From positions 1 through 14,844 of the forward strand of contig JAHQXC010000029.1 of NCBI GenBank assembly GCA_029856525.1: a stretch of 14,844 nucleotides of DNA, in the 5' to 3' direction. Every line of letters begins with the position of its first letter. Position 1 is the stretch's first letter. Made by a program: the position numbers and the translations under genes. The DNA is from Candidatus Odinarchaeia archaeon. GTDB lineage: Archaea; Asgardarchaeota; Odinarchaeia; Odinarchaeales; Odinarchaeaceae. Below, piece by piece: positions 1 to 13,454 of this stretch. The notes under the pieces were generated by a model. It saw only the letters and a program-made list of their open reading frames with translations. It ran no database searches and was not told the DNA's origin.

Positions 1-2516
1 GTCTGCGGTGTTACGAGAACTGTTTTAGCGGCTCCTGTAACGTTGAGCCTGCCGCTTCCGCTGCGATGAATATTGCATTCAACTATTAGGATAACTCCTT
101 TTCTACCAGTTATATCTGTTCCAAGCCCGTAGGCTACACCCTGCTGGGGTTCACATGGTATAACGCTTTCCTGAGCGTCTACGATTTCAGCGTCAACCTC
201 TTGCTCTAATATGTTTGCAGCCTGTTCGAAGTGGAATAATCTTACTTTATAATTATCCGGTGTGATATCTTCGATCCTTAAATTATTCCCTGTTTTCTCA
301 CGAATTATTTCGATAACCTTTTTCAAACGTTTCAAGTCTTCTTCGAATATTTCAGGGGAGTAATATGTTCCAGGAACCTTGTTGGTTACCTCCCAGGCGG
401 CGAATATTTCCTGTGATCTTAAACGGTTAGCCTCTTTTATAACCTCGCCCATAACTCTCGGGGAGACTATTCTATGTCTTTTGAAGATTTTTAAAACAGA
501 CTCCACTGTAACCTCTTCATCTAAATGCTGGAGGTAATTATTTAAGTGTATTCTAATTATGCTTATACGCTCTTCGTCGTTTCTAGGAAGAGGTATTTCA
601 ATAATATTCGGTTCGAAACGGTTTAAAACAGCTTCATCTATCGCTTCAAGTTTATTAGTAGCGGCTATTACTATCACATTCTCTAATGGTTGAAGACCGT
701 CTAGTTCAGTTAATATTTGAGCGGTTATTTTATCTCCTACAGGGTCTCCTTTCCTTCTACCAGCTATTATATCGAATTCGTCGAAGAATATGATGCTCGG
801 GGATTCTTTTCTAGCATAGTCGAAGAGGTCTCTAACGTTTTTTTCCGGTTCACCAACCCATTTAGCGTTTATTAATAGTTGAGCGGCTGGAGCGTAGAAG
901 AATGTTGCACTGTTCTCTTTCGCTATAGCTTTAGAGATATGGGTTTTACCGCATCCAGGCTCCCCCCATAATATGAATCCTTTAGGCGGAACCCAGCCTA
1001 GTTTTGTGCCGATCTCAGGGTGGAGGCTTAAAGATATACTCTTAAATATACGCTCTTTAATACCGATTAAACCGCCTACATCCTCATAGGTGACTGTGGG
1101 TTTTATTTTAAGAACGGAGCTTAAAACCTCAGTGCTCTTCTCTTTCTCCAGGTATCCTCTTAAACCACGAGCTGCGAGTTTAAAATCCTCTAAGGTTACC
1201 TCATATGTTAAAGGCTTCATAGATTTCGGATAAGATGTGAAAAGTTTCTCTCTAAGCGGCTCAACTTTCATGTTTCGAACTTTTTGAACAGCGTCGATAA
1301 TGTCGAATGGGGTTAGCTGAGTCTGCCGGTATACGCTGACAGCCTTTTCCAGGGTATCCATTATCTGTTTTTCATCTAGATAATCCCAGCCGTTTTTCAC
1401 AAGCTCAGCGTGTAAAACAGCTTCAAGCATTTCACGTGTAATATTCTGATCTAAGTCGACGAAGTAAGCTCTCCTCCGGATATCTTCTCTAACAGACTCA
1501 AAGGAGTTTGTCGCGGCGATAACTACAACTCGAGCCTCTGTGTCTAAGACTTTTTTTAAGCCTTCTATGAATGTGCTTTGAACACGTAAATCTTCTATTT
1601 GCGCCATCTGCGTGTCATGCCGGCTAACATGTTTAGCGAAGCTGTCAAATTCGTCGAAGAATAGTACTGAGGGAACGTTTACAGCTGACTTAAATATTTG
1701 ATTTAGGTTTCTAGCCGATTCACCGTAGTAAGGGTTGAAGACATCTGAGCTTTTAACCCCTCTTACTTGAACATTAACCCCTGCTTTCAACCCTTCTATA
1801 ACAGCTTCACGCATACAGACTTCAGCTAGCAGTGTTTTACCTGTACCGGTCATGCCTTTTATGAGAAAGAATTTCGGAGGCGGGTCTCCTTTAAATATTC
1901 TTCTGAATTGAGGATCTCTTAACACATGGTATAATATGCTACTCATTATGAAGCGGAATTCTTTCTCTCTTCCTACAAGCTGCTCTTTAGACTTAGGTAA
2001 ATCTAATTCAAGGCTTGAAAGTATTTTCCTCTTTTTTCTAGGTGTAAGCTGAGCTGCAAGCCACCTCCGGTATTCTGGTGTACTTAGATAGAGAAGCGGT
2101 GACAGTATTCCAGCCGACCGCTTATGGATAACCCACCAAGGAGTGAAATCGTAGACCTGTTCATCTATCATCTCATATATATGCTTTAACTTGTAGGCGG
2201 CGTAGATTATACCTGTGAAGAAGAGTAGTAGAATGGATAGAACCGGTATTGTTAAAGGAATATAGGCGGCCGGATTTACAGGGAGAAGCGCATCCACTAA
2301 AGCCACTGAGATCATTATTAAACTATACGAGAGAAATGATAGAAGAGAGGAGAAGAATAAGTATCTTACTAGAACAGCGAGTGTTTCACTTCTAGTCCAT
2401 ACGAATGTAGGTTTTCTTCGGTTGAATTCAACAGTTCTAGCTGCTATATACATGTAAGGTGTTAGCACTGCTATAAAAATAGCTGTCTCTAGGATGGTGA
2501 AGTCTAAAACTCCCAT
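1..2516 (-). CDS. Membrane-anchored tandem AAA+ ATPase (Cdc48/VAT-like D1+D2) fused to a C-terminal Lon/S16-type protease domain; 3' end truncated by the window
   Basis: Hand translation from ATG 2516 gives an open frame to position 1 (838 codons, no stop). Residues ~8-108 form three hydrophobic segments. D1: Walker A GMTGTGKT (1856-1833), pore loop NPYYGES, Walker B VLFFDE (1667-1650), VVVIAATN. D2: TYEDVGGL, PPKGFILWGEPGCGKT (Walker A 965-942), pore loop AKWVGEPE, IIFFDE (794-777), ILTELDGL, VIVIAATN..IDEAVLNRF. The last ~50 aa, PQQGVAYGLG..GVILIVE..GSGRLNVTG, resemble the start of Lon_C (VGQVTGLAW..GDLLTIE..GKGKLTYTG). Confidence 0.9.
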   Translation of the reverse strand, partial: MGVLDFTILETAIFIAVLTPYMYIAARTVEFNRRKPTFVWTRSETLAVLVRYLFFSSLLSFLSYSLIMISVALVDALLPVNPAAYIPLTIPVLSILLLFFTGIIYAAYKLKHIYEMIDEQVYDFTPWWVIHKRSAGILSPLLYLSTPEYRRWLAAQLTPRKKRKILSSLELDLPKSKEQLVGREKEFRFIMSSILYHVLRDPQFRRIFKGDPPPKFFLIKGMTGTGKTLLAEVCMREAVIEGLKAGVNVQVRGVKSSDVFNPYYGESARNLNQIFKSAVNVPSVLFFDEFDSFAKHVSRHDTQMAQIEDLRVQSTFIEGLKKVLDTEARVVVIAATNSFESVREDIRRRAYFVDLDQNITREMLEAVLHAELVKNGWDYLDEKQIMDTLEKAVSVYRQTQLTPFDIIDAVQKVRNMKVEPLREKLFTSYPKSMKPLTYEVTLEDFKLAARGLRGYLEKEKSTEVLSSVLKIKPTVTYEDVGGLIGIKERIFKSISLSLHPEIGTKLGWVPPKGFILWGEPGCGKTHISKAIAKENSATFFYAPAAQLLINAKWVGEPEKNVRDLFDYARKESPSIIFFDEFDIIAGRRKGDPVGDKITAQILTELDGLQPLENVIVIAATNKLEAIDEAVLNRFEPNIIEIPLPRNDEERISIIRIHLNNYLQHLDEEVTVESVLKIFKRHRIVSPRVMGEVIKEANRLRSQEIFAAWEVTNKVPGTYYSPEIFEEDLKRLKKVIEIIREKTGNNLRIEDITPDNYKVRLFHFEQAANILEQEVDAEIVDAQESVIPCEPQQGVAYGLGTDITGRKGVILIVECNIHRSGSGRLNVTGAAKTVLVTPQ

Positions 2517-2612
2517 TTTCTCTCAAATATCTTATAATACGGTTAGACTCAAAAATTTAACTATTACGCAAATAATTTTTTAATTCTATAATAAATTTTA
2601 TAAAATATGGAG

Positions 2613-3158
2613 TTATTTTTTAACTCCTTCAAGATGGTATGCTCCCTTATATCGTTTAGATGCTTTAGCTTTAAATAAGACTAGTTGACCTATAGGAGTG
2701 CCCTGTTCTAAGCTGAATGGCATCGTGGTTTTCAGTAAACCTTTACCGTAGCCTTCATACCCGCTATCCCATACAGACGTAGTTATAACAGCTCCATACA
2801 ACCGCCAGAGAGTACTTCTCTGAAAGAATAACCCCATCGCATCCAATGGGATTTTAACCTTCTCCATGTATTCTATGATGTAAGTAGAGTTAGCTTTCAA
2901 CTGCCAGAATAAACCTTTAAGCTCCTCGTCGTATATAGGCTGATACTCTTTAAGCTCACAGCCTTTTCTATTATTCTTGCTGAAAAATAGTTTACCGTTT
3001 GTTAAATCAACCAGCTCATATACTTTATTAATTCTAAGATCCACGCCGTTAGGCTGTATTTGATCCTCCGCGGGCTTCGGTTCAATGAGATGACACCACT
3101 CTAACGGGGATATTACTGAAAAATATCTCCCATTCCACTTTAACTTCAACCCATCCAC
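2613..3158 (-). CDS. dut: Trimeric dUTPase / dCTP deaminase family protein, most likely archaeal dUTPase
   Basis: Motifs QIQPNGVDLR, RSTLWR, VWDSGYEG, IGQLV and C-terminal YKGAY. The deaminase catalytic Glu (the LE after DPGxxG) is not evident, which favours dUTPase. The start codon is uncertain (GTG 3158 or a downstream TTG). Confidence 0.75.
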   Translation of the reverse strand: MDGLKLKWNGRYFSVISPLEWCHLIEPKPAEDQIQPNGVDLRINKVYELVDLTNGKLFFSKNNRKGCELKEYQPIYDEELKGLFWQLKANSTYIIEYMEKVKIPLDAMGLFFQRSTLWRLYGAVITTSVWDSGYEGYGKGLLKTTMPFSLEQGTPIGQLVLFKAKASKRYKGAYHLEGVKK

Positions 3159-4540: not shown

Positions 4541-4867
4541 ATGAGTGCACCGTGCGAGTTCGCTGTAAAATATCTTTATCCAATAGTTAGATCAGAGATA
4601 GCTAAATTCTTAATAAATAATTTGAAGCTCACGCAGGTTCAAGCGGCGGAGAAACTAGGGATAACCCAAGCGGCGGTAAGCCAGTATACGAGTTTGAAAA
4701 GAGGGGGAAGGATTGAAAAAATCCCTGAGAGAGTTCAAAAAATCATTAAAGAGTGCTTAAAAGAGTTATGCACACCGGATTGCGCTGACAGGATCTCTGA
4801 GAAATCCGTTGAGCAAACTGTTTGCAATATTTGTAAACGTATTAAAAATTTGGGTAGCGTTAACTAG
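4541..4867 (+). CDS. XRE-type HTH transcriptional regulator (COG2522-like), cysteine-rich
   Basis: N-terminal PCE..P..R..IA, HTH TQVQAAEKLGITQAAVSQY..KRG, C-terminal CNIC. Six Cys in 108 aa. Its stop codon overlaps the hypB stop in the palindrome CTAG (4864-4867). Confidence 0.8.
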   Translation: MSAPCEFAVKYLYPIVRSEIAKFLINNLKLTQVQAAEKLGITQAAVSQYTSLKRGGRIEKIPERVQKIIKECLKELCTPDCADRISEKSVEQTVCNICKRIKNLGSVN

Positions 4868-8970: not shown

Positions 8971-10182
8971 TCACTCTACATGTGACCTGAATAAATCGAC
9001 GTCCGACCATAATTCCTTCTGTTCGAAGATGTGTATGAATTCTCTGACCGCTCTCTCCGGGTCTTTAGCTTGAGTGATGTAACGGCCGACTATAAGAATA
9101 TCAGCTTCGGTTTGTAAAGCTTCTAAAGCTGTTGAAGGCTGAATTCCACCAGCTACAGCGATAAGTATCTTCTGTTTTTTAGCTTGATAATATTCTCTTA
9201 TAGGTTTCAAAGCCTCCCATTTAGGAGGAGCTTTACCGTATTGCTCAGCATCCACGCTTCTATGCAATATTATAACGTCAGGTTTCTCCTTTAATTGTTT
9301 AACTCTTTCAAGAGGGTCAGCTACATTCATCATATCGATGAAAGCGTATATGCCCATTCTCTGAGCCTCGTATATGAATTTATCCAGGGTTTCGTTTGAA
9401 GCTAAACCTGAAGCCACTACAGCGTCAGCTGTTGCTTCGAAAGCCATATCGACTTCAACGTTACCTACATCTAAAGTCTTTAAATCTGCTATTATAAAAA
9501 CATCTTTAGCAACCTCTCTAAGCTCGCGGATAACATCGACACCGTAGCGTTTAATTAGCGGTGTGCCGGCTTCTAATATTATACGATCGCTTTTAGGAAT
9601 GGTTTTAATAAGATTTTTACAGGCTTCTATGGAGGGAATATCTAAAGCGATTTGAAGGTATGGTGGACGCCATAGTCTAGGAACATTAAATCCCATTATC
9701 GGATGCCTCGCTCTATCTTTATCGAATAATATTTTTTCAAGAGGCGGATACCTGGATAAAGCTCGTTTCAAAGCGAGTTTAGTAGCACTATAATTGAAAT
9801 GATAGATTTTACGATCATCCTTAGCCTCCGGGTGTATGAAAACAGATGCGATTATAACCCATTCTTCTAATTTATCTTGAGGGATAAGCCCTTCTTCAAC
9901 AGCGTCAGCGACTGCTTTAGCTACAGCGGCTTGAGCTGGACCGAAAATCTTATTCGCCTGCTCTAAGTTTTGAACAGTTACTTTAGGTACGATTAAAGTC
10001 ATAGGCTTCGGAGGGAGATTCGGCCTTATAACTGCTAATAATGGAGTATGGCCTTGAGAGAGCTGAGTTAAACCGTTCGCGAATGCAACACCCACAGGAC
10101 CGTTTTTATCCCCTACAAGAAGATCTATGTGAGCTACTTCAGCGTCTGTTCCAAGCAGAGCTTCACCTATAAAATAATCCAT
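8971..10182 (-). CDS. fae-hps: Bifunctional formaldehyde-activating enzyme / 3-hexulose-6-phosphate synthase (Fae-Hps)
   Basis: N-terminal Fae domain (IGEAL.G...EVAHIDL.VG.K.GPVG.AFA..L....GHTPLLAVIRPNL; FGPAQAAVAKAVAD). C-terminal Hps TIM barrel (LQIALD, EAGTPLIK, ADLKTLDVG, VAGGI, IVGRYIT). SD GAGGAG. Confidence 0.95.
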   Translation of the reverse strand: MDYFIGEALLGTDAEVAHIDLLVGDKNGPVGVAFANGLTQLSQGHTPLLAVIRPNLPPKPMTLIVPKVTVQNLEQANKIFGPAQAAVAKAVADAVEEGLIPQDKLEEWVIIASVFIHPEAKDDRKIYHFNYSATKLALKRALSRYPPLEKILFDKDRARHPIMGFNVPRLWRPPYLQIALDIPSIEACKNLIKTIPKSDRIILEAGTPLIKRYGVDVIRELREVAKDVFIIADLKTLDVGNVEVDMAFEATADAVVASGLASNETLDKFIYEAQRMGIYAFIDMMNVADPLERVKQLKEKPDVIILHRSVDAEQYGKAPPKWEALKPIREYYQAKKQKILIAVAGGIQPSTALEALQTEADILIVGRYITQAKDPERAVREFIHIFEQKELWSDVDLFRSHVE

Positions 10183-10256: not shown

Positions 10257-10286
10257 CTTTTGTGTTTTTTAAAGGATGGTGGTTTC

Positions 10287-11258
10287 TTGGATAGCATTAA
10301 TAGGAGAGCTGTTGAGCTTGTGGAGAGAGTACTATTAGAGAGGGAAAGCTTAAATGTAAGTATTCTGGATATAGCCGGTTCAACGGTAATCGACTGTGGG
10401 GTTAAAAGTAAAGGCTCCTTGAAAGCAGGGTTACTGGTCAGCAAAATATGTATGGGCGGGTTAGCTGAAATCGAAGCGTTCAATAATAATTTATTCGAAA
10501 AACAGCTCTTCGTAAAGGTGTCGAGTAGGAATCCGGTTTTAGCATGTCTAGGGTCACAGTACGCTGGGTGGAGAATAAAATTGAATGATTTCTATGCGTT
10601 AGCTTCAGGTCCTGCGAGAGCGCTCAGCATGGTTGAAAAAGATCTTTATAATATAATCGATTACGAGGATAACTATGATAAAGCGGTGATTTTCCTAGAA
10701 ACCGGTAAACTTCCACCGCCTAATGTAGTAGAATATATAAGAGATGCTTGTAGAGTTGATGAAAAAAACTTGTATATTATAGTAGCTAGAACTGCCAGTT
10801 TAGTTGGCTCAGTTCAGATAGCCTCTAGGGTTTTAGAAACCGCCCTGCATAGATTACTACGCTTAGACTTCCCCTTGAGTAAAATCATAGAAGGGGAGGG
10901 GGTATGCCCTATTCCACCGGTCGCTGATTCAGATCGGATTGCTATGGGGATTACCAACGATGCGATTATATTTATGGGAGAAGTCCGCCTTATAGTTGGA
11001 GGGGTGGGGGATAAATTTATTGAGGGCATAGTTGAAAAAACAGTTTCATCCAGTTCACGAGTATATGGTAAGCCTTTTATAGAAATACTAGAGGAGGCTG
11101 GCTATGACTTTTATAAGATTAATCCTGATCTTTTCTCACCGGCTAAAATACGCATAGTTAACCGTGATACTGGAAGAGTATTCGAAGCTGGGAGTGTGAA
11201 CTGGGCTGCATATGAAAAATCTTTATCTAAATACGTTTTTTCAAACTTCACCGGTTGA
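10287..11258 (+). CDS. mch: Methenyltetrahydromethanopterin cyclohydrolase
   Basis: SIN..A, IDCGV...GSLKAG....ICMGGL, ACLGSQYAGW, SGPARAL, TASLVGSVQIASRV.ETALH, TNDAI, GKPF..I, DFYKINPDLFSPA. Start moved from the track's 10260 to the in-frame TTG 10287, which follows the SD GGTGG. Confidence 0.95.
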   Translation: MDSINRRAVELVERVLLERESLNVSILDIAGSTVIDCGVKSKGSLKAGLLVSKICMGGLAEIEAFNNNLFEKQLFVKVSSRNPVLACLGSQYAGWRIKLNDFYALASGPARALSMVEKDLYNIIDYEDNYDKAVIFLETGKLPPPNVVEYIRDACRVDEKNLYIIVARTASLVGSVQIASRVLETALHRLLRLDFPLSKIIEGEGVCPIPPVADSDRIAMGITNDAIIFMGEVRLIVGGVGDKFIEGIVEKTVSSSSRVYGKPFIEILEEAGYDFYKINPDLFSPAKIRIVNRDTGRVFEAGSVNWAAYEKSLSKYVFSNFTG

Positions 11259-11501: not shown

Positions 11502-12092
11502 ATGCCTGTTGAAGAGGATTTAAACGCTTATAAAGAAGCGCTTAGAGTATTCAACCAGTTTCTAAACGCGGTTAGAAGAGTTGTCTTCGATAAATATCCG
11601 GATCTGCTTTCAGGAAGAGATTTGAAAGATAAAATCAGAGACATAGATAACGTTCAGAAGAAAATAGATGAGCTTATGATACAGTTTAAAAAATTATTCA
11701 CTGAAAAACTTCTACTTTTAACCGCTGCGCGCTCTCTTCTCTGGCATGTTAACACTACTATAACTGACTCTGAGAGTGTGAAGGAGTTGAAAGAGAGGCT
11801 TAGAATTTTCATAATGCCTGAGCTTGAACGATTCCTCAACTCTTTTAAACGGGAGAGCGATCTTTTACAGCAGCGTATAAAACCGCTGTTTAAAGTCTAT
11901 GAGGATATTAGAAAGGTTCTTGAAAACGTGGATGTGAGAAACAAGGAGTTTGAGAATATAATTCAACCAGACGAGAAGGGGATGACTCTACTAGACGATA
12001 TGCTACAACTTATTTTAGAGGATAAATTAGATGAATTCGATCGAAAATACGGTGAGATGATAAGAGACTTAGAGGAGAGCACGCGCTCCTAG
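11502..12092 (+). CDS. Hypothetical all-alpha/coiled-coil protein (196 aa)
   Basis: Charged (E/K/D/R/L-rich) sequence with long amphipathic helices and no recognisable motif. It has its own AT-rich upstream region (GAAAAGTTTAAA, 11427-11438). Confidence 0.7.
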   Translation: MPVEEDLNAYKEALRVFNQFLNAVRRVVFDKYPDLLSGRDLKDKIRDIDNVQKKIDELMIQFKKLFTEKLLLLTAARSLLWHVNTTITDSESVKELKERLRIFIMPELERFLNSFKRESDLLQQRIKPLFKVYEDIRKVLENVDVRNKEFENIIQPDEKGMTLLDDMLQLILEDKLDEFDRKYGEMIRDLEESTRS

Positions 12093-12107: not shown

Positions 12108-13454
12108 TTATCTCTTCATTAATAATTTGAATCTGTGAGTTAATTTCAACGGGATTTTTATAATCTCCCAGCTTGGGGTTAAACTATTATTAAAATAGAT
12201 TGCGGTTAAAATCTGCTCATCTCTCAGTTTTTTCATGTCAGCGAAGCTTTGAAGTATTTGAGCCATTTCACTTAACGGATGATCGGCTATTAAAATAGGG
12301 AGGAAATCAGAGGAGAGATCGAAGTACACGCTGCTTCGTGTAGAAAAATATTTCAGTATAAGCTGCATATTCTTAGCGTTAACAGGATTCTTAGTAGATA
12401 AGCTGACTGTTAAAATAAATTTTTTATCTTCACGGATAAGCTTCTCTTGAAAGAATTTTATGAAGAAATCTGTTTTAGCAAAATAAGATATGTTGTCGAA
12501 AAACATATAGTCTAATGTAATTTTATTAGATTCAATCACATCTATTATATTATAGAGTAGCACCGGATAGAATAAATCATATATTGTGTTAACTGTTGAA
12601 TTCACTAATATTATAATGGTTTTCTCTTGGAGAAGAGTTTTAAGATATTGAGAGGCCCCTGCTTCAAAAAAGTTGACCAGTTTACTAGTAGAATACCCTT
12701 CAGCTACTTCTTTAGCCCATTCATCTAAGAATTTCCTAGTACGCTCATCATGCCTCTGCTTGAATAAACTATATAAACCGCTGATATACTTTAATCCTTT
12801 TAAAAGCAGTAGAGTAGGGCTGCTAGAGATTATAAAACTTCCTACTCCTGCAGCTATACCTGTAGCCTCGTCAGCTTTCACATGCGGTTTCTCTTTCTCA
12901 ATTTTTAAAGCTAAATCCTCTATAAATGAAGGTGGGCTTAGATTTTTCACTAGAATATTGCTTAACTCATCTAAACAAGCTAAACTCTTATTATAACATA
13001 ATTTTTTTAAATCAAAATCTGTTTTTTTAACAGATATCTCGCTGATAATCCCAGTTAAATAACCCGGGTTTAAGCTAAGCCAGTCTAAATCTATTTTGAT
13101 ATTTTTGTAACCCTGGTTTTCAACCAAGCTCCCGGAGATTTCACCGAAGAAGATAATAGAGTAGTCTACGCGTTCTTCTGTGAATATTTTTTTAAGATGA
13201 TTTAGCAACTCCCAGAGTACTCCGCCCCCGCTGCTTAAATTTAAAAATACCAGGGTTTTCCGGCCTTTAACCGCCTCCGCCGCTGCGATATAAGAGATTA
13301 TTTGACTACAAGTTACTTGAATACTCTCAGACTCATATACTATGCTATTATCATATGTTATCAGAGCTGTATCACTGCTTAGACTTCTATCTAAAAGTGT
13401 TTTCGCAACGTCTCTCGCAACAGTTAGAGACTTATAAGATTTCTCCACGTTCAA
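12108..13454 (-). CDS. Hypothetical 448-aa protein; possibly a degenerate HerA/VirD4(TraG)-like P-loop fold
   Basis: Long ORF with a TTG start after SD GGTG. The alpha/beta pattern has degenerate equivalents of Walker A (TLVFLNLSSGGGVL) and Walker B (YMFFDNISYF), followed by REDKKFILTVSLS. The fold call is inference; the ORF itself is well supported. Confidence 0.6.
   Translation of the reverse strand: MNVEKSYKSLTVARDVAKTLLDRSLSSDTALITYDNSIVYESESIQVTCSQIISYIAAAEAVKGRKTLVFLNLSSGGGVLWELLNHLKKIFTEERVDYSIIFFGEISGSLVENQGYKNIKIDLDWLSLNPGYLTGIISEISVKKTDFDLKKLCYNKSLACLDELSNILVKNLSPPSFIEDLALKIEKEKPHVKADEATGIAAGVGSFIISSSPTLLLLKGLKYISGLYSLFKQRHDERTRKFLDEWAKEVAEGYSTSKLVNFFEAGASQYLKTLLQEKTIIILVNSTVNTIYDLFYPVLLYNIIDVIESNKITLDYMFFDNISYFAKTDFFIKFFQEKLIREDKKFILTVSLSTKNPVNAKNMQLILKYFSTRSSVYFDLSSDFLPILIADHPLSEMAQILQSFADMKKLRDEQILTAIYFNNSLTPSWEIIKIPLKLTHRFKLLMKR

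Follow-up and report, generated by a model that had tools for sequence, protein, structure and literature searches.

Locus and complete gene

The stretch of DNA described here (the window, meaning all of its 14,844 nucleotides) consists of the first 14,844 bases of contig C31 (JAHQXC010000029.1, forward strand) of the Candidatus Odinarchaeia archaeon assembly GCA_029856525.1, a metagenome-assembled genome (MAG) of 1.32 Mb in 127 contigs that is 93% complete. Its left end carries most of a gene whose predicted product, a single chain of 1012 residues, combines an N-terminal membrane anchor, two AAA modules in tandem and a C-terminal Lon proteolytic domain. The minus-strand frame at 3..2516 has an ATG start and 838 codons (residues 1-838), and is free of stops up to window base 1 when open ends are allowed. 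Because the window begins at the start of contig C31, the frame runs off the end of the contig and not off the end of the gene.

The remainder was recovered from the same sample. The stretch was found in one public run, whose Logan contig (L099, 6,656 nt) is 100% identical to window 1-2702 and extends 3,954 nt past its left edge. L099 encodes the complete protein (P0124, 1012 amino acids, located through the 90% cluster of its nearest ortholog). Residues 1-838 are identical to those of the window frame, residues 839-1012 are encoded at L099:2701-3225 (+), and a TAG stop follows residue 1012. The far end of L099 matches the end of another contig of the same MAG (C122:5387-7083). A gap of about 2.26 kb thus separates C122 from C31 in the assembly, and the 3′ end of the gene is absent from the MAG. 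A Lon_C search of the window's own genome gave no match anywhere, a result that is uninformative about the gene because its 3′ end falls in this gap.

An earlier note, made from the letters of the window alone, had described one uninterrupted frame with three hydrophobic helices, two AAA modules with intact Walker A and B motifs and a Lon-like segment (GVAYGLG..GVILIVE..GSGRLNVTG, at nt ~150-20), and had expected the rest of a Lon domain to the left of the window. All of this was borne out. The segment corresponds to residues 793-830 (nt ~140-27), and L099 adds 174 residues, with no early stop, that complete a recognisable Lon_C domain.

The nearest ortholog (P0002) is also 1012 residues long, is 92% identical and colinear, and is encoded on the closed 1.418-Mb chromosome of Ca. 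Odinarchaeum yellowstonii LCB_4. The gene order ThiI-dCTP deaminase-protease is common to the window and the LCB_4 locus.

ATPase modules

PF00004 (AAA) is matched twice in the window frame (residues 217-348 and 515-638; 188.9 bits, cut-off 21.1). The first module (D1, residues 211-440; 1197..1886, minus strand) carries Walker A GMTGTGKT at 221, pore loop PYYG at 262, Walker B VLFFDE at 284 and an arginine cluster, R347-349. The second (D2, residues 475-785; 162..1094, minus strand) includes an extended helical lid and carries Walker A GEPGCGKT at 518, pore loop KWVG at 552, Walker B IIFFDE at 575, ELDGL at 604 and R633. Walker A, Walker B and the aromatic pore loop are thus intact in both modules. 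K227, K524, D288-E289, D579-E580, Y264-G265, R347-349 and R633 are invariant in an alignment of 51 family members. D1 is preceded by an N-region (residues 120-210; 1887..2159, minus strand) made of a low-confidence hinge (116-123) and a helical part, with the motifs PWW, YRRW, LTPRK and LVGR.KEF.

The curated models that match the ATPase part best are CDC48 (TIGR01243, 213 bits; cut-off 802.65), PAN and FtsH, none of them a Lon ATPase model. D1 is a very divergent classical-type AAA module. In a tree of AAA domains (a quick tree, with long branches and a limited set of outgroup AAA families), the family D1 forms its own long-branch clade (support 100; branch length 2.7) outside Cdc48 D1 and D2. 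The family D2 likewise forms its own clade (support 80), outside Cdc48 D1, Cdc48 D2 and the single-AAA proteins of the genome. Descent of the motor from Cdc48 was considered on the strength of its colinear alignment to TIGR01243 and of p97 as best fold match; the domain tree gives it no support. Such descent is unsupported rather than excluded, because the tree is a quick one, the D1 branch is long and the outgroup families are few.

Pfam scans of six family members gave no match to the Cdc48 N domain (PF02359/PF02933), which is carried by the true Cdc48 hits (P0099-P0121). No member has an HbYX-like C-terminus; the PAN-like protein of the same genome ends in LYG. The term Cdc48-like, used in the earlier note, thus holds for the tandem AAA architecture and for a resemblance in fold, and does not hold as family membership, since the N domain is absent, TIGR01243 is matched far below its cut-off and neither module is nested in the Cdc48 domains. 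Three ordinary Cdc48 paralogs and one PAN-like protein are encoded in the same genome, so the protein described here adds to the proteasome-linked unfoldases and does not replace them.

Lon domain and Ser-Lys dyad

The first 50 or so residues of the Lon S16 proteolytic (P) domain (residues 789-838; 3..152, minus strand) lie in the window, and the catalytic residues Ser894 and Lys941 lie past its edge. The window fragment alone gave no Pfam Lon_C match and only a weak alignment to TIGR00763 (LonA), up to residue 833. In full-length P0124, Lon_C (PF05362) is matched over residues 789-985 (45.9 bits; cut-off 21.1), and P0002 gives 46.8 bits. Ser894 (in GVSGPSLG) and Lys941 (in GTGKFLAA) align to the catalytic Ser and Lys of the solved P domains of LonB and LonBA. 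Both residues, with the flanking GPS.G and GG...GK motifs, are invariant across the 51 aligned members, which are 35-60% identical overall. The residue before the catalytic Ser is Pro in 87 of 89 members.

Wherever the Lys motif could be located (79 members), the offset from Ser to Lys is 47. In true Lons, LonA and LonB alike, exactly 42 residues lie between Ser and Lys, an offset of 43 (PMC9569914). The longer offset is due to a conserved GWRG-type insert that precedes Lys. Of the Lon Ser-Lys dyad foreseen in the earlier note, the two residues were found and the spacing of about 43 was not.

The P domain scores low against every curated Lon model: 72 bits for spore LonB/LonBA (TIGR02902; cut-off 723), 60 for archaeal LonB (TIGR00764; cut-off 516) and 17.5-42 for LonA (TIGR00763; cut-off 608).

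Membrane anchor, fused or separate

The anchor module (residues 1-119; 2160..2516, minus strand) has three transmembrane (TM) helices (8-33, 42-77 and 89-110, from the hydropathy of the window frame and the AlphaFold2 model of the ortholog) and an acidic end motif, YEMIDEQ; it matches no Pfam family. Loop 1 of the anchor has five Lys/Arg residues and loop 2 has none. According to the positive-inside rule, this points to an N-out/C-in topology with the ATPase in the cytoplasm.

TM segments are confined to the Asgard members of the family. In Bathyarchaeia, Sulfolobales, Methanomethylicaceae and Nezhaarchaeales (four main-clade TACK loci, in MAGs), a co-directional, Pfam-less membrane-protein gene lies upstream and overlaps the start of the AAA-Lon gene by 20-26 nt; at a clade-B locus the membrane-protein gene abuts that start. 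The stand-alone upstream proteins end in a 3-TM module, and the Bathyarchaeial anchor (124 residues) aligns to residues 17-120 of the Odin protein (BLASTP E 2e-9). Fused and unfused anchors share W40, A47, Y105, D118 and E119 in the alignment, as well as a terminal ...Y(E/D)xIDEE motif. The unfused TACK AAA-Lon proteins begin at the equivalent of Odin residue ~120 (PWW, YRRW, LTPRK, LVGR.KEF). The homology of the anchors, taken with this starting point, indicates that two TACK genes are joined end to end in the Asgard protein. The description of the protein as single-chain therefore applies to the Asgard members; at the four main-clade TACK loci a gene of its own, with translational overlap, encodes the anchor.

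A complex prediction for the Bathyarchaeial anchor and residues 1-330 of its partner gave a score of 0.54 (best control 0.00), with at least 93% contact agreement between runs and a partner pLDDT (predicted local distance difference test) of at least 80. The mark applied is reached by 58 of 80 solved complexes and by 2 of 110 mismatched pairs; it is reached at 0.60 or below by seven of the 80 and by both mismatched pairs. The prediction lends weak support to an anchor-partner complex in Bathyarchaeia.

Some TACK anchors (L007:3211-4020, L009:2223-3026, L010:2205-3026, L012:2135-2998) have an extra N-terminal signal or TM segment and a Pfam-less extracytoplasmic region of about 140 residues ahead of the 3-TM module. 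This extension, absent in the Bathyarchaeial (124 residues) and Odin versions, may serve as a sensor or make contact with the envelope. At the Brockarchaeota locus no anchor gene overlaps in the same direction, and a divergent gene for a membrane protein of 257 residues lies upstream (L011:2179-2952 (-), 1416-2189 (+)).

Predicted structure

AlphaFold2, run on the family alignment, gave a model with the expected domain order (mean pLDDT 80.5; predicted template modelling score, pTM, 0.47). The hinge (116-123, low confidence) is followed by a helical N-region (127-207), two alpha/beta AAA modules, a long helical D2 lid and a Lon-like alpha/beta domain (794-1010). The best Foldseek matches in the PDB are p97/CDC48 chains (~620 aligned columns, 25-28% identity). 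No PDB chain spans the whole AAA-AAA-Lon arrangement, so that releases up to April 2026 include no such structure.

Family and distribution

A search of 5.8 billion proteins yielded about 97 relatives with two AAA modules and Lon_C, across Asgard and TACK archaea. Members of ~1010 residues are labelled Odinarchaeia, Hodarchaeota or Promethearchaeota. Those of ~900-930 residues come from MAGs of Bathyarchaeia, Nezhaarchaeales, Hecatellales, Methanomethylicaceae/Verstraetearchaeota, Sulfolobales and Desulfurococcaceae. Members are 55-92% identical across classes; a second tier, Brockarchaeota among them, lies at ~38% identity. Their database names are 'AAA family ATPase' or similar only. One sequence (P0033, 884 residues, 60% identical) is labelled 'Methylomirabilota bacterium' in NCBI; the bacterial label is probably a binning error, since the sequence groups with Bathyarchaeia-like members.

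Within the phylum, a family-specific query (D2 lid and Lon) found the family in eight of 151 sampled genomes (both Odin families, 3/3, and one other besides). A contig scan seeded with the family alignment is of no value for the distribution: it chose generic AAA motifs and returned Cdc48, FtsH and other AAA loci in unrelated organisms.

Lon_C was surveyed in 26 genomes, the window's MAG and 25 relatives (E <= 0.001). In two near-complete Odinarchaeum genomes, of the same genus as the window (G001, 97% complete; G002, one contig, 98%), PF05362 matched only the frame of ~1014 residues and no other. Some other Asgard genomes have LonB-type frames (640-720 residues, 106-134 bits). In other Asgard genomes, frames of ~800-830 residues align to the Lon_C profile in its second half only (positions 108-200; 36-43 bits) and are a different Lon_C-containing protein (G005:C134:26976-27287; G006:C6:49232-49546; G007:C90:5916-6227; G016:C31; G017:C1:2065272-2065583; G018:C89). 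Thirteen of the 26 genomes gave no Lon_C match (G009-G013, G015, G020-G023 and G025, and the window's MAG with its assembly gap, among them); six of the thirteen are 95-99% complete.

Proposed mechanism and alternatives

The gene product probably serves as one subunit of a self-compartmentalised protease that is driven by ATP and anchored in the membrane. If Lon, FtsH and p97/VAT are a guide, six such subunits would form a three-tier ring (D1, D2 and a Lon chamber), tethered beneath the cytoplasmic membrane through 18 TM helices. The PYYG and KWVG pore loops would grip the substrates, which are probably membrane proteins that are misfolded or unassembled, together with cytosolic proteins close to the membrane. 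ATP hydrolysis would pull them through both rings, and cleavage would take place in the Lon chamber by Ser894/Lys941. At the four main-clade TACK loci the same machine would be encoded by two overlapping genes, anchor and AAA-AAA-Lon, fused in Odinarchaeia and a few other Asgard archaea. Extraction of the kind seen in endoplasmic reticulum-associated degradation (ERAD), suggested in the earlier note, is plausible.

Archaea are not known to have FtsH. Since no other Lon_C frame occurs in the two near-complete Odinarchaeum genomes, the AAA-AAA-Lon protein probably supplies the membrane-bound, ATP-dependent protease function that LonB gives elsewhere. A wider proposal is given about an even chance: that the family is a previously undescribed class of energy-dependent protease, the principal machine for extraction and degradation of membrane proteins in lineages without FtsH and canonical LonB, and a one-particle counterpart of the eukaryotic ERAD pair of Cdc48 and proteasome.

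Several points weigh against the protease interpretation. Activity of the Lon domain is assumed from the invariance of its residues, and the offset of 47 in place of 43 means that the geometry of the active site differs. D1, highly divergent, might bind ATP without hydrolysing it. At a pTM of 0.47 the packing between domains is not confidently predicted. The hexamer, the kind of substrate and the placing of the machine relative to the membrane are drawn by analogy, and the argument for replacement of LonB is based on two near-complete genomes of one genus.

The alternative that survives best, though it is unlikely, is that the protein is an unfoldase or segregase that remodels or extracts its substrates without processive degradation, the Lon domain serving as a scaffold, in autoprocessing or as a site-specific regulatory peptidase. 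The non-canonical Ser-Lys spacing and the conserved GWRG insert that directly precedes the catalytic Lys are in keeping with this, as is the low pLDDT at 884-889, immediately N-terminal of Ser; inactive or ATP-independent relatives of Lon are also known, for example LonC (2022 classification). A dead site would however be expected to drift, and Ser894, Lys941, GPS.G and GG...GK are invariant in 51 sequences that are 35-60% identical; moreover, as is the case in every true Lon, an intact translocating motor comes immediately before the P domain.

It is far less probable that the protein belongs to an anti-phage or conflict system, as an AAA ATPase plus protease of the IetA/IetS kind, and not to housekeeping proteostasis. 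PADLOC IetA models do match D2 (145.5 bits), NCBIfam IteA gives 129 bits, and the distribution in the phylum is patchy (8/151). These matches cover the generic D2 AAA core only, however, and the score for NF042959 (129 bits) compares with a cut-off of 510. The neighbours are housekeeping genes (ThiI, dCTP deaminase, superoxide dismutase, peroxiredoxin), syntenic between strains, no defence genes are adjacent at the loci examined, and an identity of 55-92% across classes is typical of a core function.

That assembly or gene calling produced the arrangement, through a chimeric contig or a frameshifted pair taken for a single gene, can be set aside in spite of the truncation of the window copy at a contig end and of breaks within the gene in several Odin MAGs, since the same colinear frame of 1012 residues is found in a closed chromosome, a 1.05-Mb contig and independent Logan assemblies, and since the Logan contig is exact over 2,702 nt of the window and runs on through the Lon domain to the stop.

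The usual list of ATP-dependent proteases runs to Clp, HslUV, Lon, FtsH and the proteasome with PAN, Mpa or Cdc48, and reviews assign the proteasome system and LonB to archaea. A tandem classical-AAA motor with a Lon chamber behind it would be one more architecture in this list and would show that Lon P domains can run on a non-Lon motor. For Odinarchaeia, the likely protease of membrane proteostasis is identified. Because TACK archaea keep the anchor as a protein of its own and Asgard archaea carry it fused, the family amounts to a natural experiment in subunit fusion. For cryo-electron microscopy and biochemistry, the soluble TACK orthologs (~900 residues, thermophilic) seem well suited.

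Neighbouring genes and the assembly break

The gap between C122 and C31 contains the sequence for the Lon C-terminus, the Fe/Mn superoxide dismutase gene and part of the peroxiredoxin gene. In LCB_4, two Pfam-less genes on the opposite strand (677 and 213 residues; L004:9036-11783) lie between the protease and superoxide dismutase genes. In the window's strain the protease and superoxide dismutase genes are only 338 nt apart (L099:3226-3563), which indicates a strain-level indel of about 2.7 kb at the site of the MAG break. Contigs of several independent Odinarchaeial MAGs end inside or just after the gene (G003:C85:3983-4330; G004:C142:3-569; partial proteins P0003, P0006 and P0011). Such repeated breaks suggest strain heterogeneity downstream of the protease gene rather than chance.

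Two tetrahydromethanopterin (H4MPT)-linked C1 genes of this Odinarchaeon are found elsewhere in the window. One encodes a Fae/Hps-type fusion of a formaldehyde-activating enzyme and an OMP-decarboxylase/HUMPS family domain (8971-10182, minus strand), the other methenyl-H4MPT cyclohydrolase (MCH; 10260-11258, plus strand; 376.6 bits). Three window frames have no Pfam family at E <= 1e-5: 11502-12092 (+; 196 residues), 12108-13454 (-; 448 residues) and 4541-4867 (+; 108 residues).

Comparison with known proteases and unfoldases

The AAA-AAA-Lon architecture was found undescribed in the full-text literature searched, where neither 'Cdc48-Lon' nor 'AAA-Lon' is used, and in the PDB; subscription-only literature lay outside the search, and absence is to that extent unproven. 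All four groups of the 2022 Lon classification (LonA, LonB, LonC and LonBA) have one AAA+ module only. The 2008 survey of Lon_C architectures includes no AAA-AAA-Lon_C form and reports no Lon in five cultured Crenarchaeota. The 2022 review of archaeal membrane proteases names LonB only, and the paper on evolution of the Cdc48 family nowhere mentions Lon. The component families are known; their combination (a pair of classical AAA modules with a Lon P domain, whose A-type centre is modified, and with a dedicated anchor, separate or fused) is found in none of the literature or structures searched. This agrees with the earlier note, which knew of no described protein of this architecture and held that it fits none of FtsH, LonB and Cdc48. 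Compared with true Lons (MEROPS S16), the Lon_C domain and the Ser-Lys dyad are present; the offset of 43 and the single HCLR-clade AAA+ module are not.

LonA has an N-terminal LON domain and a PKDGPSA centre. The Odin protein has no LON domain match and its centre is GVSGPSLG, so that only Pro-Ser is common to both. LonBA (B. subtilis 'LonB', 8DVH) resembles the Odin protein in its N-terminal membrane insertion element and its A-type (Pro-Ser) centre, and its model, TIGR02902, is the best curated Lon model for the P domain. It differs by its single Lon-type AAA+ module and is found only in Firmicutes (2022 classification).

Cdc48/VAT/p97 resembles the Odin protein in its tandem D1-D2, the style of its pore loops and the colinear alignment to TIGR01243, and no fold in the PDB matches better. 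The two share tandem AAA modules of the classical clade, with Walker A/B motifs and aromatic pore loops. The Odin protein has neither the N domain nor an HbYX-type end, falls below the TIGR01243 cut-off, has a D1 and a D2 that form clades of their own in the quick domain tree, and carries a covalently attached protease.

FtsH likewise joins an N-terminal membrane anchor, a classical-clade AAA module, which D2 resembles, and a C-terminal protease in one chain. It has one AAA module and an M41 zinc metalloprotease, whereas the Odin protein has two AAA modules and a Ser-Lys Lon domain. No Peptidase_M41 match was found in the latter, and TIGR01241 is matched over D2 only (143 bits; cut-off 600).

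Archaeal LonB (MEROPS S16.005; A. fulgidus 1Z0B, T. onnurineus 3K1J) differs in having one HCLR-clade AAA+ module into which a TM hairpin is inserted, an Asp that precedes the catalytic Ser and an offset of 43. The Odin protein has two classical-type PF00004 modules, an N-terminal 3-TM anchor whose helices (8-110) precede both of them, Pro before Ser and an offset of 47, and it stays far below the cut-off of TIGR00764. Both are nevertheless single-chain, membrane-bound proteins that combine an ATPase with an S16 Ser-Lys protease. Among solved structures, the P domain of archaeal LonB matches best in sequence (E 1e-9), and the likely cellular role is common to both.

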